NCBI GenBank assembly: GCA_963756875.1
Contig: CAVWPA010000001.1
Span: 448,001 to 512,000, forward strand
From: an uncultured Verrucomicrobiae bacterium
Lineage (GTDB): Bacteria > Verrucomicrobiota > Verrucomicrobiia > Chthoniobacterales > UBA10450
Direction of reading: 5' to 3'
Length of the DNA: 64,000 nucleotides
In this document: piece after piece, positions 24,208 through 38,013 of the stretch
Layout: the number at the start of each line of letters is the position of its first letter
Numbering within the stretch: position 1 is the stretch's first letter
Translations under genes and position numbers: made by a program
Notes under the pieces: model-generated
Seen by the model: the letters and a program-made list of their open reading frames with translations, nothing else
Told to the model about the DNA's origin: nothing
Database searches by the model: none

Positions 24208-25317
24208 ATGACTGCCGAGTCCAAAAACAAATCCGACGGGTCTTCGTCGGCGAGCTTCAGCCATGTCGATCAATATCTGGCGGTCGGGCAAAAGGCGGGC
24301 GCGTCCGACGTCCACCTTGGTGTAAATTCGCCGCCGATCTGGCGTTTGCACGGAACGTTGCAACCGATCTGGCCCGATGCGCCGGTTTTCACGAGCGAAC
24401 AAACATTGGCGCTGGCGGAAGGATTTCTCTCCGATTTGCACAAAAAGCAGCTGAACGAGCGCGGCGATACCGATTTTGCGTATGCCAATGAATTCGGCCG
24501 TTACCGGACGAGCGTGGTGCGGCAGAGGCTCGGACTTGAGATCGTCTTTCGCATCATTAATACCAGTGTGCGGACGATGGACGAGCTTGGCTTACCTCAA
24601 CATCTTAAGTTGCTCACCCGCTATCAAAACGGCTTGATCCTGGTGACCGGGTCGGTCGGCAGCGGAAAATCGACCACACTGGCTGCGCTGGTCGAGCAGG
24701 TGAACATGGAACGTCGCGAGCATATCATCACGCTGGAAGACCCCATCGAGTACGTGCTGGAACCGAAGAGTTGCCACATCACGCAGCGCGAAGTCCACAC
24801 CCACACGCTCTCATTTTCGGCGGCGTTGCGAGGTGCTCTCCGGGAAGATCCGGATGTCATCATGGTGGGAGAAATGCGCGACCTGGAGACGATTTCGCTC
24901 GCCATCACTGCGTCGGAGACCGGCCACCTGGTCCTGGGAACGTTGCATACCGGAAATGCGTCGCGCACGCTCGATCGATTACTCGACGTATTTCCGCCCG
25001 ATCAACAGGAGCAGATCCGCATCATGGTCAGCGAATCGCTGCGGGGCGTGATCAGTCAGCAGCTGATTCCGCGCATCGATGGAAAAGGACGGGTGCTCGC
25101 GCTGGAAACTCTAACCAACACACCCGCCGTGGCGAATGTCATCCGCGAAGCGAAAACGTACATGCTGCCCGGGATCATCCAGACCGGGAAGAAACAGGGC
25201 ATGCAGCTGATGGACGATTCCCTGGTCGATCTTTACAACCGCGGCTTGATCAGCGCCGAAGAGGCCTACGCCCGCGCAGAGCAAAAAGCCGAAATGCGAC
25301 AGCATCTGAAAATCTGA
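24208..25317 (+). CDS. pilT: Type IV pilus retraction ATPase PilT
   Basis: ASDVHL, GSVGSGKSTT, TLEDPIE, ALREDPDVIMVGEMRD, ETGHLVLGTLH. Confidence 0.92.
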   Translation: MTAESKNKSDGSSSASFSHVDQYLAVGQKAGASDVHLGVNSPPIWRLHGTLQPIWPDAPVFTSEQTLALAEGFLSDLHKKQLNERGDTDFAYANEFGRYRTSVVRQRLGLEIVFRIINTSVRTMDELGLPQHLKLLTRYQNGLILVTGSVGSGKSTTLAALVEQVNMERREHIITLEDPIEYVLEPKSCHITQREVHTHTLSFSAALRGALREDPDVIMVGEMRDLETISLAITASETGHLVLGTLHTGNASRTLDRLLDVFPPDQQEQIRIMVSESLRGVISQQLIPRIDGKGRVLALETLTNTPAVANVIREAKTYMLPGIIQTGKKQGMQLMDDSLVDLYNRGLISAEEAYARAEQKAEMRQHLKI

Positions 25318-25788
25318 CCACGGATTACACGGATTTAACGGATGAGGAAAATAATTCATGAAGAGCTAAGCGGCATCATTATTGGCATCGCTATGGAGGT
25401 GCTCAATGAGTTGAAGCCGGGACTGGATGAAAAACTGTATGAGCGAGCTATGGCAATTGAATTGAAAAGGCGCGGCCATCCGATTTCGGTCCAGACCGCG
25501 TTTCCGGTTTTTTATCGCGGCGAACTAATCGGAAATTTGGTTCCTGATTTAATTGTAGATAATGCCGTAATCGTTGACCCGAAAGTAGCATCCAGCTTCA
25601 CCGAAGCGCACGTTGCTCAAATGATCGGTTATTTGAACATCACCGGGCTCGATCTGGCGCTCCTGCTAAACTTCAAGAATTCGCGCCTGGAATGGAAACG
25701 CGTTTTGCGACCGCGTGAAGCTGCCGGACAAATCGCCCCTGATCTTCATGGTTGAGTATGAATCCGTGATATCCGTGTAATCCGTGGT
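25317..25788. mobile_element. Putative mobile cassette: 27-bp inverted arms (3 x 9-mer) around a GxxExxY gene
   Basis: accacggat tacacggat ttaacggat (25317-25343) and atccgtgat atccgtgta atccgtggt (25762-25788); TCTG on both sides. Confidence 0.65.
25342..25755 (+). CDS. GxxExxY protein
   Basis: GLDEKLY motif, PDLIVD..IVDPK, HVAQMIGYL, LLLNF. Confidence 0.92.
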   Translation: MRKIIHEELSGIIIGIAMEVLNELKPGLDEKLYERAMAIELKRRGHPISVQTAFPVFYRGELIGNLVPDLIVDNAVIVDPKVASSFTEAHVAQMIGYLNITGLDLALLLNFKNSRLEWKRVLRPREAAGQIAPDLHG

Positions 25789-25794
25789 TCTGAA

Positions 25795-26946
25795 ATGGCT
25801 TATTTGGATCAATTTCTAAAAGTGATCGTCGACCAGGGCGGGTCCGATCTGCACATCGGCGAGGGACAACCGCCCAAGATGCGCAAGCACGGCGATGTGG
25901 CGCCGATTCGAGAGGAGCCGATCGCGCACGACGAAGCGTTGTCGATGCTGAGCGAAGTCTGCGGGCCGCATAATTGGGAAATTTTCGAGGAACGCGGCGA
26001 CCTCGATTTCGCTTACGAGATGGATGCCGCGTCGCGTTTCCGTTGCAACTATCTCAAGCAGGCCAACGGATACGGCGCCGTCTTTCGTTTAATTCCCACC
26101 AGGATTGCTTCGCTGGAAGAGCTGGGCATTCCGCTCGTGGTCAAGGATTTTGCGCACTTGCGCGGCGGCCTCGTTCTCGTGACCGGGCCTACCGGTTCCG
26201 GCAAATCGACGACGCTGGCCGCTCTCATCGATTACATTAACGAGAATTTTGCGAGACACGTCGTAACGATTGAAGAACCAATCGAGTTCGTGCACGAGAA
26301 CAAGCGCAGCATCATTACGCAGCGTGAGGTTCCTAACGATTCGATCACGTTTCCGGTCGCGCTAAAAGCCGCATTGCGCGAGGACGTGGACATCGTGCTG
26401 GTCGGGGAAATGCGCGATCTCGAGACGATTTCGCTGGCACTCACCGCTGCCGAGACGGGCGTGCTCGTTTTCGGGACGCTGCATACCAACAACGCGCGCA
26501 AGACGGTCGACCGCATGGTGGATGTCTTCCCGGCGCCGCGACAGGCGCAGGCGCGCGCGATGCTGGCGAACTCGCTTCGCGGCGTGCTCGCCCAATTGCT
26601 GTTGAAAAAAGCCGATGGCTCGGGCCGGGTCGCAGTAAACGAAATCCTGATCGCCAGCGCCGCGGTCTCGGCAATTATTCGTGAAGGCGCAACGCAAAAA
26701 CTTCAGGACGTCATCGTGTCGGGCAAGGGGCAGGGGATGCAATTCATGGACGACGCGATCTGGGCGCTTCTGCAACAGGGAATTGTCACGCCTCATGAGG
26801 CATTTATGAAAGCCATCGACAAAAATCGATTCAAAAAATTTCTGCCCGCCGAAGAAGAAGCCCTCGGTAATGCGGCTGGCGCCGTTCCGAACGACGAAAA
26901 GCGTGCGGCTGGAAACTATGTTAAACCTGCTCGCCGCGCACGTTGA
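25795..26946 (+). CDS. pilT: Type IV pilus retraction ATPase PilT/PilU paralogue
   Basis: GSDLHI, GPTGSGKSTT, TIEEPIE, ALREDVDIVLVGEMRD, FGTLH. Confidence 0.9.
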   Translation: MAYLDQFLKVIVDQGGSDLHIGEGQPPKMRKHGDVAPIREEPIAHDEALSMLSEVCGPHNWEIFEERGDLDFAYEMDAASRFRCNYLKQANGYGAVFRLIPTRIASLEELGIPLVVKDFAHLRGGLVLVTGPTGSGKSTTLAALIDYINENFARHVVTIEEPIEFVHENKRSIITQREVPNDSITFPVALKAALREDVDIVLVGEMRDLETISLALTAAETGVLVFGTLHTNNARKTVDRMVDVFPAPRQAQARAMLANSLRGVLAQLLLKKADGSGRVAVNEILIASAAVSAIIREGATQKLQDVIVSGKGQGMQFMDDAIWALLQQGIVTPHEAFMKAIDKNRFKKFLPAEEEALGNAAGAVPNDEKRAAGNYVKPARRAR

Positions 26947-27113: not shown

Positions 27114-27725
27114 GTGCACTCGTTACTAAATAGCCAGGTTTTGGTGCTCAACCGTCTCTGGCAGGCGGTGAACATCTGCACGGCGCGACGCGCGTTTTCG
27201 CTCGTTTATGCGGGTCACGCGCACGTTGTTTCGTCCGACGACACAAACAATTTTCTGACGCACGATTTCGAGAGTTGGCGCGATTTTTCGGCTAACGCGC
27301 CCGACCACGAAATGGTTACCACGATTTCGTGGAAGATCCGCGTGCCGCGCGTGATCGTGCTGCTCTTTTTCGATCGTCTCCCGAAGAAGGAAGTAAAATT
27401 TACGCGCCACAACGTTTTCGAGCGCGACAAGAACACATGCCAGTATTGCGGCCACACTTTCGATCGCAGCGACTTAAACCTCGACCACGTTGTGCCGCGC
27501 GATCGCGGCGGAACGACGACGTGGGAAAACGTGGTTTGCTCGTGCATCGAGTGCAATACGCGAGAAGGGAATCGTCTTCCCCGGGAGGCGAGCATGACCC
27601 TGATTCGCAAACCGAAGCGGCCGAAGTGGCGACCGTTTGTGCACGTGACTTTTTCCTCGCCGCAACATGAGAGCTGGCGGCACTTTGTCGATCTCGCCTA
27701 CTGGAACGTCGAGCTGAGCGATTGA
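27114..27725 (+). CDS. HNH endonuclease
   Basis: VLVLN, VPRVI, RDKNTCQYCG, DHVVPRDRGG...WENVVCSCIECN. Confidence 0.92.
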   Translation: MHSLLNSQVLVLNRLWQAVNICTARRAFSLVYAGHAHVVSSDDTNNFLTHDFESWRDFSANAPDHEMVTTISWKIRVPRVIVLLFFDRLPKKEVKFTRHNVFERDKNTCQYCGHTFDRSDLNLDHVVPRDRGGTTTWENVVCSCIECNTREGNRLPREASMTLIRKPKRPKWRPFVHVTFSSPQHESWRHFVDLAYWNVELSD

Positions 27726-27767
27726 GCCGGGCAGAATCCGAACCGCGGATTACGCGGATAACACGTT

Positions 27768-32539: not shown

Positions 32540-33021
32540 TCCGCTAAACACGCTAAAAGACGCCAAAATTCAGAGATAAATCGGTTCATCGGATTCGACG
32601 TTCCGGTGCGTTTTTGCGATCCGCTCATATTGCAGCTTTGGATAATGGCCAAAGTTGAGAAGCAAGCCGAGGTCGAAGCTTCCAGCCTTGAGATAGTTCA
32701 AAACCTGCGCGCGGTGCTCGTCTTTTATTTCCGCAACGGCTTTTAACTCGACTACGACTTTTCCAAAGCAAACGAAATCGGGAAAGTAACTTTGAGTGAG
32801 GACCTGGCCGCGATACTCAAGAGATAAGCCGGGTTGTCCAATTGCCGGAATGTGGCGATGCGCGAATTCAATACCGAGACATTCTTGATAAATTGGCTCG
32901 TGAAAGCCGCATCCTTTGTCTTTGTAAACTTCAAAGCACGCGCCAAGAATCGCATAGCATTCATCCTTTAAGATTAAATCCGGTGCCATTTTTTTTGGCG
33001 TCATTTGGCGTGTTTGGCGGA
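32540..33021. mobile_element. Putative mobile cassette: 29-bp inverted arms (~10-mer units) around a GxxExxY gene
   Basis: tccgctaaacacgctaaaagacgccaaaa (32540-32568) and ttttggcgtcatttggcgtgtttggcgga (32993-33021). Confidence 0.62.
32570..32989 (-). CDS. GxxExxY protein
   Basis: GFHEPIY motif, PDFVCFGKVVVELKAV, HRAQVLNYL, GLLLNFG. Confidence 0.93.
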   Translation of the reverse strand: MAPDLILKDECYAILGACFEVYKDKGCGFHEPIYQECLGIEFAHRHIPAIGQPGLSLEYRGQVLTQSYFPDFVCFGKVVVELKAVAEIKDEHRAQVLNYLKAGSFDLGLLLNFGHYPKLQYERIAKTHRNVESDEPIYL

Positions 33022-37517: not shown

Positions 37518-37964
37518 TTACTCTTTCTCTTGCTCATGCTCTTGATCGCGCTCGTAACCGAATTCAAAGTCCGACTCCTCGCGTGCCATTGCCGTTCTCG
37601 AATCAAAGCTGTAGCCGAGTCGTTTCAGCAACCCCATAAGCATATTTACGATTTGTACCAGCTGCTCTTTCGCTGCTGCAACGTGAGCCTCTGTCGTTAG
37701 TTTGCGCGAAACCAAAACGTCCAGACTCGCTGCTGATTCCAGTGCCGATCCGCGTGCAATATCAAAAAAGCGCGCGCGATCTCTCGTAGAAAACTTTCCG
37801 TTTCCTTCGGCGATATTCAGCGGAACACTTGTTGCAGCGCGATCAAGCTGATCTTTTGCCGCAGCCTTTGCATCGATCGAGGAAAGGAATTCGCCGACCC
37901 ACCCATTAAAGGCGAGTGATACTTGATAGACATTCAATTTTTCGTGGTCGAAGTAAGCTTTCAT
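37518..37964 (-). CDS. Four-helix-bundle protein (23S rRNA IVS protein-like) flanked by inverted hexamer arrays
   Basis: FDHEKLNVYQ, DQLDRAATSVPLNIAEG, RFFDIARGSALE; arms at 37517-37547 and 37974-38003. Confidence 0.9.
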   Translation of the reverse strand: MKAYFDHEKLNVYQVSLAFNGWVGEFLSSIDAKAAAKDQLDRAATSVPLNIAEGNGKFSTRDRARFFDIARGSALESAASLDVLVSRKLTTEAHVAAAKEQLVQIVNMLMGLLKRLGYSFDSRTAMAREESDFEFGYERDQEHEQEKE

Positions 37965-38013
37965 TTTCAGATTGAGCATGAGCAAGAGCATGAGAAAGAG
38001 TAGGAATAAGGGT

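Follow-up and report, generated by a model that had tools for sequence, protein, structure and literature searches.

We wondered how a small gene of the GxxExxY family, enclosed by inverted arrays of a short word, came to lie between two neighbouring pilT genes. The locus belongs to a stretch of 64,000 nucleotides (nt) from an uncultured Verrucomicrobiae bacterium (assembly GCA_963756875.1, contig CAVWPA010000001.1, positions 448,001 to 512,000), referred to below as the window. Positions without prefix are those of the window; C1 and C3 denote contigs of the assembly (G000; 2.69 Mb, 3 contigs). An earlier note, made from the letters of the window alone, regarded this cassette as the clearest insertion event of its system, marked by an apparent 4-bp target duplication. 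Our analysis leads to another picture. On comparison with related genomes, the cassette is an old resident element, common to many related soil bacteria, and the matching flanks are most likely a coincidence.

The element, about 470 bp in length, is made up of one gene between two inverted arrays of the 9-nt-spaced word CGGAT. The upstream pilT-family ATPase gene, pilT1 (24208..25317, plus strand; TIGR01420, 415 bits), ends with AAA ATC TGA, and its stop codon (25315-25317) abuts the left arm or shares its first base. This arm (25317..25343, plus strand) is composed of three 9-nt units carrying the CGGAT word, in order ACCACGGAT, TACACGGAT and TTAACGGAT. The last unit also provides the start codon (cggATG, 25342-25344) of the only open reading frame (ORF) of the cassette, a GxxExxY/PDDEXK_3 gene (25342..25755, plus strand) that encodes 137 amino acids of nuclease fold with the catalytic E, D and D-x-K residues present; a transposase gene is absent from the cassette. 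The stop codon of the ORF (25753-25755) is separated by 6 bases from the right arm (25762..25788, plus strand), an inverted copy of the left one. Then follow the right flank TCTGAA (25789..25794), of which TC together with the last T of the arm (25788) makes up the TTC of the element, and the start codon, at 25795, of the downstream pilT-family ATPase gene pilT2 (25795..26946, plus strand; TIGR01420, 427 bits). The outer 18 bp of the arms form a perfect inverted repeat (C1:473317-473334 and C1:473771-473788), and 25 of 27 positions pair over the full arms (score 21). TCTG stands directly outside both arms, on the left at 25313..25316, inside the Ile codon and the stop codon of pilT1, and on the right at 25789-25792. 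Both neighbours are full-length members of the PilT/PilU family, covering positions 3-343 and 2-341 of the 343 positions of TIGR01420. The anatomy given in the earlier note is therefore borne out by the coordinates: 27-bp arms of three 9-mers with the outer 18 bp inverted and TCTG on both sides, a cargo ATG made by the last repeat unit, and an insertion at a stop codon that leaves both pilT genes unbroken.

A target duplication of this kind would be expected if a cut-and-paste enzyme had inserted the cassette through a staggered 4-bp cut in one discrete, clear event. In line with this, TCTG (TCTGA counting the first A of the arm) lies immediately outside both arms, removal of the cassette with one TCTG leaves a single base between the stop and the next start, similar to the TAAcGTG junction of one relative (L022), and at each of two loci (L144 and L152) the flanks are partly similar. 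Against it, when read exactly at the inverted-repeat ends, only the pilT cassette among 21 elements of the genome has a direct duplication of at least 2 bp, the other 20 having none; when left and right flanks were shuffled within the genome, boundary duplications of at least 4 bp arose in 4 of 420 pairings. With 2 nt of slack, 4 of the 21 elements reach 4 bp, compared with 42 of 420 shuffled pairings. At least 4 bp is reached by a single one of 36 cassettes of the family, again that of pilT, versus 19 of 1260 in the null set. For 53 loci of the clade, ends were set at CCRCGG...CCGYGG; exact direct repeats of 5 or 6 bp occur at none of them, and 3 (counted without naming the loci) have a 4-bp repeat, read as palindromic TTAA. 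The flanks of these 53 loci instead have A at position -1 (52 loci) and T at +1 (all 53), followed by complementary AT-rich sequence, TT(T/G)(A/G)A|CC...GG|TT(A/C)(A/T)A, and the arms thus extend past the part marked by the earlier note.

Conservation of the flanks points in the same direction. The right arm is followed by TTC in 8 of 8 orthologues and remnants from related genomes, by TTCTG in many metagenome orthologues, and by TTCAA in a geneless copy elsewhere in the genome. Because this TTC or TTCTG is seen again in orthologues and at further sites, we assign it to the element and not to a duplicated target. In orthologues of the pilT site the match is lost, their flank pairs being TCTA/TCTG, TTTG/TCTA, TTTA/TCAA and TTTA/TCGT, and in L025 a TAA in place of TGA is the sole difference from our genome and suffices to abolish it. 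The pilT1 end aaaatcTGA also occurs in relatives without the cassette (L017 and L011). Moreover, TCTGA and its reverse complement are identical except in the central base, so that an extended inverted arm mimics a direct repeat. The TCTG match is present and is not significant after multiple testing. The cut-and-paste duplication model is largely refuted by these data, and we consider it highly improbable. The duplication is not reproduced in other cassettes or in hairpins, and the nearest metagenomic relative without the gene has a longer junction (see below); these are the two outcomes that the earlier note had itself named as speaking against a duplication. For annotation, the case advises caution: a perfect 4-bp flank match next to an inverted repeat with near-palindromic ends is no evidence of transposition. 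A target site shared by the pilT cassette and a cassette at another locus (L065), suggested by ATCTGA ... AATG.CTT flanks, was considered as well and rejected, the likeness being explained as arm extension by the flank logo of the 53 loci.

The pilT1-pilT2 tandem is conserved, with a pilT2 match in 58 of 61 genomes. Thirty junction loci were fetched, of which 29 were readable (L013 stops at a contig end). One remnant (L030) comes from the unpublished genome G007; the 61-genome, arm and gene tallies include the unpublished G002, G007 and G014, and L054 and L059 are excluded from every count. The same CGGAT cassette occupies 6 of the 29 junctions (our own, L012, L016, L025, L028 and L032). Cassette remnants are found at two (L008, which has the arms and the first 22 codons, and L030) and a vestige together with hairpins of other words at one (L011), while nine hold a geneless hairpin or solo arm of other words. 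Three junctions measure 10-29 nt and the remaining eight are compact, with at most 6 nt. Among the compact ones, L014 and L018 have a TAATG overlap (AAAATGTAATGG), L022 has TAAcGTG, and L019, L024, L026, L027 and L031 have 2-6 nt. In L019 (G023), whose junction measures 2 nt by eye, the end of pilT1 falls into the frame of pilT2 through an apparent frameshift, giving an open frame of 785 amino acids; an assembly error may account for this, or the fusion may be real.

Metagenomes extend this series. Junctions were resolved in 65 of 80 pilT2 loci: 19 contain a full-size CGGAT cassette, 6 a remnant or scar, 21 a CGAATGACGAA hairpin, 4 a CCAAG-type hairpin and 9 a short TCTGAC/CTTAC array; 2 are compact (3-4 nt) and 4 are of other kinds. 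The closest full-length metagenomic relative of pilT2 that lacks the gene (L138, 92% match) reads TAA CCGCGG TCCTGCTT ATG, not TCTGAAATG, and L195 reads TAA T CCGCGG TTTCTGCC ATG. Each of the two thus keeps one terminal arm word as a scar. The terminal CCGCGG is itself palindromic, so that the two ends repeat each other in direct and in inverted orientation; this would offer a simple deletion route. The compact junctions of relatives without the cassette support its reading as an insertion, placed between a stop and a start, with both pilT genes left intact. Taken together, the pilT junction provides a natural time series of full cassettes, deletion remnants, one-word scars, replacements by other words and compact junctions, and it documents the origin of geneless palindromes from gene-bearing ones.

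Two of the occupied junctions have tandem forms. L025 (G012) contains a full cassette, a spacer resembling the start of pilT2 and the end of pilT1, and then a second, internally deleted cassette; in L012 (G010), a truncated first copy is followed by a string similar to the end of pilT1 and by a full copy. Such forms take in 15-25 nt of both flanks and speak for duplications and deletions around the hairpin, not for clean transposition.

Is the cassette recent? Orthologous cassettes at the same junction share 67-80% DNA identity, compared with 73-84% for the adjacent pilT2. In 21 intact orthologues the median proportion of synonymous differences (pS) is 0.79, that is, saturated, and that of nonsynonymous differences (pN) 0.19; dN/dS for pairs with the gene of the window, where dS is defined, is 0.04-0.12. 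The insertion is hence neither as clear as the earlier note had it nor recent. Most full-size cassettes retain the gene, with 21 of 25 having a complete ORF, one lacking the PD...D segment and three being broken. The outer 17 nt have a mean identity of 90% in the left arm (24 orthologues) and 88% in the right arm (25 orthologues). This lies far above the saturated synonymous sites, and the words themselves are therefore constrained beyond the needs of pairing. On the pilT tree, cassette bearers are scattered among genomes of other junction states; our own locus and L012 are the closest bearers there and are again nearest to each other in the cassette tree. The simplest reading is a single old insertion followed by many losses and replacements, and old lateral re-seeding of the cassette is a possible alternative for the scattered bearers. 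Near-identical gene copies were sought among 76 proteins and none were found: the maximum within a genome is 80% amino acid identity, and no pair between genomes reaches 90%.

We then asked if gene and arms form a unit. Our genome contains five GxxExxY genes, and each has a word of its own in the inverted arrays around it (CGGAT, CGCCAAA, CACAGAT, CACGAAT and ACGAAG). A genome scan for inverted word arrays revealed 28 clusters, including geneless hairpins for all five words and for words that have no gene in the assembly. The arm pattern CCRCGGATTACNCNGAT, with at most 1 mismatch, has 25 matches in the genome versus 0 for a reversed control and is therefore not a chance feature. Only this longer pattern is informative, the 7-mer CACGGAT showing no enrichment in the window (10 observed, 9.5 expected). 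Most CGGAT arm matches are solo arms or short hairpins, often beside other repeat families. All 78 copies of the family gene examined (38 and 40) are flanked by inverted word arrays, and protein clades match words (38 proteins).

The association persists at other sites and in other phyla. A search with the cassette protein in species-representative genomes retrieved 79 loci, with pilT on both sides in 29, on one side in 2 and the cassette elsewhere in 48. At L065 (G036), a non-pilT intergenic site, CGCGGAT arms enclose a protein that is sister to the pilT-site clade (support 94/88). Relatives in Opitutaceae and Planctomycetota (Opitutaceae, Gemmataceae, Phycisphaerae, Bremerella and others), with 63-71% amino acid identity, keep CGGAT arms of the AACCACGGAT type. 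At the cdsA/dxr junction, L134 (G012) is 80% identical to L005 of our own genome, a cassette from a different site that shares its CACGAAT words; in six other genomes (L044, L045, L053, L055, L100 and L101) this junction holds another clade with ACAGAAT words. Comparison of these loci indicates independent occupation, or replacement, of the junction by two clades and words in different genera. Within one site lineage words drift in concert, from CACAGAT to CACGGAT and from CGCCAAA through CGCGAAT to CGCTAAT. The latter case is that of the second GxxExxY cassette of the window (32540..33021, minus strand), which has CGCCAAA/CGCTAAA arms and lies between nuoK and nuoL; this junction also has cassettes in six other genomes, with words drifting from CGCCAAA to CGCGAAT and CGCTAAT. 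Each clade keeping its own word array, even across phyla, provides a concrete and testable substrate for the enzyme of a large family.

The same design is found with an unrelated cargo. A 23S_rRNA_IVP gene, coding for a four-helix bundle, makes up a cassette between nuoE/F and nuoG (37527..37988, minus strand). In total three 23S_rRNA_IVP/TIGR02436 genes of the genome are bracketed alike, the other two being located at C1:688023-688343 and C3:103925-104236. Their arms consist of CTCATG/CTCTTG, GGACAGA or GATCATG words, and their sites include nuoE/F-nuoG and gap-pgk.

What does the cassette encode? The ORF matches PF13366 (E 6e-34, 117.3 bits, cut-off 22), its sole Pfam match, and TIGR04256 (E 3e-35, 121 bits, cut-off 35), and it contains the motifs GLDEKLY, PDL and VDPK. 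An alignment of 34 family sequences reveals that E30, Y33, E40, D69 and K81 are invariant, and that in the ORF the invariant D and K are represented by D69 and K81, with D79 in the D/E column. The unusual motif pointed out before, IVDPK instead of VELK, is real: most paralogues have VELK, and IVDPK is the D form of (D/E)xK, which is also present in five other clade members at the pilT junction and in L065 and L005. The AlphaFold2 model of the protein (predicted local distance difference test score 91.6) has as Foldseek neighbours the PD-(D/E)XK nucleases LHK-Exo, Cas4 SSO0001, lambda exonuclease and Hjc, with template-modelling (TM) scores of about 0.5 and at best about 0.55. The predicted structure thus confirms a PD-(D/E)XK nuclease fold. 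These neighbours do not discriminate between exonuclease, Cas4, Hjc and splicing-endonuclease types, and sequence search against solved structures gave only chance ankyrin matches (E at least 0.1). In a 2012 survey of PD-(D/E)XK proteins, the function of the GxxExxY/PDDEXK_3 family is given as unknown (PMC3424549). Full-text literature searches on GxxExxY, PDDEXK_3, PF13366 and TIGR04256 returned no description of the repeat arms, though papers beyond the searched literature are possible, and in the literature on the protein of rRNA intervening sequences (IVSs) and on palindromic repeats of Verrucomicrobia we found no account of such cassettes. The underlying system is apparently undescribed. 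As to the C-termini, many GxxExxY paralogues end just 5' of the right arm with short acidic-hydrophobic tails (DEISL, DEIYL, DFSL, DVSL, PDLHA), which may represent a peptide motif or may be forced by pairing with the first codons; most orthologues of the cassette have PDLH, and some vary.

Cassettes of the family tend to be wedged into operons. When an ORF of at least 80 amino acids was required to end between -25 and +12 nt of the left arm and the next one to start between -8 and +45 nt of the right arm, 30 of 36 cassettes lay between co-directional ORFs, the orthologues among them not being independent. In the predicted RNA fold (z = -2.4), arms pair in both the minimum free energy (MFE) and the centroid structure, and an inner stem is formed by the first and last codons (CAUGAAGA / UCUUCAUG). 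Its 5' half, CATGAAGA, lies in the HEE codons (25357..25364, plus strand) and is complementary to the 3' half, TCTTCATG, in the codons of the conserved C-terminal DLH (25733..25740, plus strand), again in MFE and centroid folds. The variable A/G position of the arms is concordant in 18 of 24 orthologues, with 3 G.U and 3 A.C combinations, a count confounded by descent; from these small numbers no signature of RNA-specific covariation in the arms emerged.

How might such an element have arisen and persisted? We propose an old resident cassette in which nuclease and repeats form a partnership similar to REPIN/RAYT on a different enzyme fold, a reading that we regard, given that its mechanism is read from sequences, as evenly poised. 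The data indicate that an ancestor of many Chthoniobacterales acquired the cassette between the stop of pilT1 and the start of pilT2, and that it was then inherited along with the operon. Gene and arms have sometimes moved as a unit to other junctions and other phyla. Internal deletion has repeatedly turned cassettes into geneless hairpins and one-word scars, and geneless arms of the same word are scattered in the genome, with no target duplication made. As each protein clade keeps its own word, the nuclease probably recognises its own words, perhaps on the arm hairpin or a cruciform. By cutting or resolving at the base of this structure it would maintain and occasionally mobilise the arms, much as RAYT does with REPINs, with another catalytic fold. 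In operon mRNA, pairing of the arms may hide the start codon of the cassette and place the stop codon of the upstream gene beside the start codon of the downstream one; the tolerance of cassettes in tight operons would be explained in this way.

Several observations weigh against this proposal. The link of clades to words is largely confounded by descent, with about 20 sites for 74 cassettes and few site-independent cases, and young gene copies were not found among the 76 proteins compared. Arms are abundant in genomes in which no cognate gene was found, namely G021 (86 arms), G035 (44), G017 (33), G008 (28) and G025 (25); G016 with 34 arms and G030 with 24 have no TIGR04256 match at all, at a completeness of 63-98%. 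Thus, arms do not need the gene to persist. Occurrence of the unrelated 23S_rRNA_IVP in the same design suggests that the arms may be the autonomous part and the ORF mere cargo. Finally, the Foldseek match, with TM scores of about 0.5, is generic.

More tentatively, operon-junction elements may make up a single class across phyla, of which the GxxExxY and the 23S_rRNA_IVP cassettes would be two versions that differ in cargo. The word palindrome would close over the cargo in the transcript and restore stop/start contact, permitting a long life in essential operons (pilT, nuo, cdsA-dxr, gap-pgk), and the nuclease would co-evolve with the word, seeding and pruning geneless hairpins. If true, the long-unexplained intervening sequences of rRNA would thereby be connected with a broader group of mobile DNA, whose enzyme fold has not previously been tied to repeat propagation.

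The 23S_rRNA_IVP cassettes also invite an explanation at the level of RNA, in which the cassette is an IVS-like element: RNase III or the encoded protein would cleave the stem in the transcript, the processed RNA would serve to express the ORF or be regulated by it, and the DNA would spread only incidentally. A 23S_rRNA_IVP gene does lie in a like cassette 12 kb away and two more elsewhere in the genome, and this family is known from rRNA intervening sequences and has no known function (PMC11270868). In addition, arms close the whole cassette in the predicted fold, where pairing reaches the first and last codons, cassettes are co-oriented with operons, and some PD-(D/E)XK folds cut RNA, splicing endonucleases being among the weak Foldseek matches. 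We nevertheless think this explanation unlikely. It is the sequence of the arms that is conserved, not pairing alone; the variable A/G position, with 3 of 24 G.U versus 3 of 24 A.C, has no RNA-specific signature, small as these numbers are; and a cis role on one transcript leaves dozens of geneless and solo arms in unrelated locations unaccounted for.

Alternatively, palindromes could spread or persist by other means and GxxExxY could be a retained host nuclease that resolves hairpins or cruciforms and so controls the arms with no mobilising role. This would fit strong purifying selection over a long time, mostly vertical inheritance with each clade in single copy, and the success of arms where the gene is lacking; the one-word scars look like the outcome of cleanly removed hairpins, and the Holliday-junction resolvase Hjc is among the structural neighbours. 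On the other hand, the gene is always found inside its own pair of arms, in 78 of 78 copies, and it moves with them between sites and phyla, which is more typical of an element than of a host gene. We therefore judge a host-side keeper distinctly unlikely.

Returning to the proposed nuclease-repeat partnership, REPIN/RAYT is by analogy its closest known counterpart in population behaviour, and the rRNA IVS with an IVP ORF is the closest in anatomy. As in REPIN/RAYT, there is one enzyme gene per repeat family, located between its own palindromic repeats, along with many geneless palindromic copies in the genome (for the cassette, 25 arms versus 0 in the control) and no target duplication. Mostly vertical inheritance and long persistence are described for REPIN/RAYT in two reports (10.1101/2022.05.22.493013; 10.1101/2021.07.10.451892); the cassette likewise persists vertically for long, with one copy per family and few relocations seen. 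Enzyme class, word-array arms and the habit of occupying operon junctions differ and set the cassette apart from both REPIN/RAYT and IVS. Its enzyme is of the PD-(D/E)XK type (PF13366), not an HUH Y1 transposase. Repetitive extragenic palindromic (REP) elements are single stem-loops tagged with GTAG/CGTC (PMC3733652); no such stem-loops were seen, and the arms of the cassette are arrays of three 9-nt-spaced words starting with AACC. Unlike REPIN/RAYT, the cassette gene sits inside one hairpin, wedged in operon junctions, and arms of the cassette type are abundant in genomes without the gene.

With the 23S rRNA IVS the cassette shares a small ORF of unknown function, inverted repeats able to form a closing stem (for the cassette, in the predicted fold) and an insertion that leaves the product of the host gene functional, and a 23S_rRNA_IVP gene occupies the sibling cassette of the window. 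In contrast to the IVS, it is placed between protein-coding genes (two pilT genes) and not in an rRNA helix, its cargo has a nuclease fold, and its arms are multi-word arrays with many geneless copies. IS200/IS605 elements are similar in having palindromic ends, no target duplication and conserved bases directly outside the ends; the cassette differs in lacking TnpA and TnpB, in having ends that are true inverted repeats of each other, and in that recent multi-copy gene-bearing elements were not found among the 76 proteins. From insertion sequences and transposons of the DDE type it differs by the absence of a transposase gene and of fixed-length duplications (1 of 21, 1 of 36, and none of 53 for lengths of at least 5 bp). 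Like homing endonuclease genes, it carries a small nuclease gene, occupies the same site in many lineages and leaves host function undisturbed. Unlike in these, the protein is not of LAGLIDADG, GIY-YIG or HNH type, no intron or intein is involved, and the protein is also found at other sites (48 of 79 loci). Cassette bearers are scattered on the pilT tree; divergence of the cassette, on the other hand, tracks that of its neighbours, which fits descent better than repeated homing, and the closest pair agrees in both trees.

Further repeats were noticed in the surroundings of the locus and in the rest of the genome. An HNH endonuclease gene (PF14279/PF01844) is found at 27114-27725, 170 nt 3' of pilT2, and after it comes a geneless solo arm of the CGGAT family, CCGCGGATTACGCGGAT (27743..27759, plus strand; C1:475743). 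A second, abundant family of inverted repeats, GGGGAGCGCACGCGCCTCGCGTGC..., has loops of about 60-130 nt (for example C1:507090-507201 and C3:1630445-1630589). There is also a TGTAGCGGCGGTCT family, and CGGAT solo arms often adjoin both families (C3:1120105, C3:1258032). In addition, near-perfect short palindromes with a 1-nt loop, AAACTTGACTGCTT / AAGCAGTCAAGTT, are clustered at C3:1782799-1784088 with a spacing of about 150-280 nt and occur as single copies at C1:126094, C1:238572 and C1:390409.

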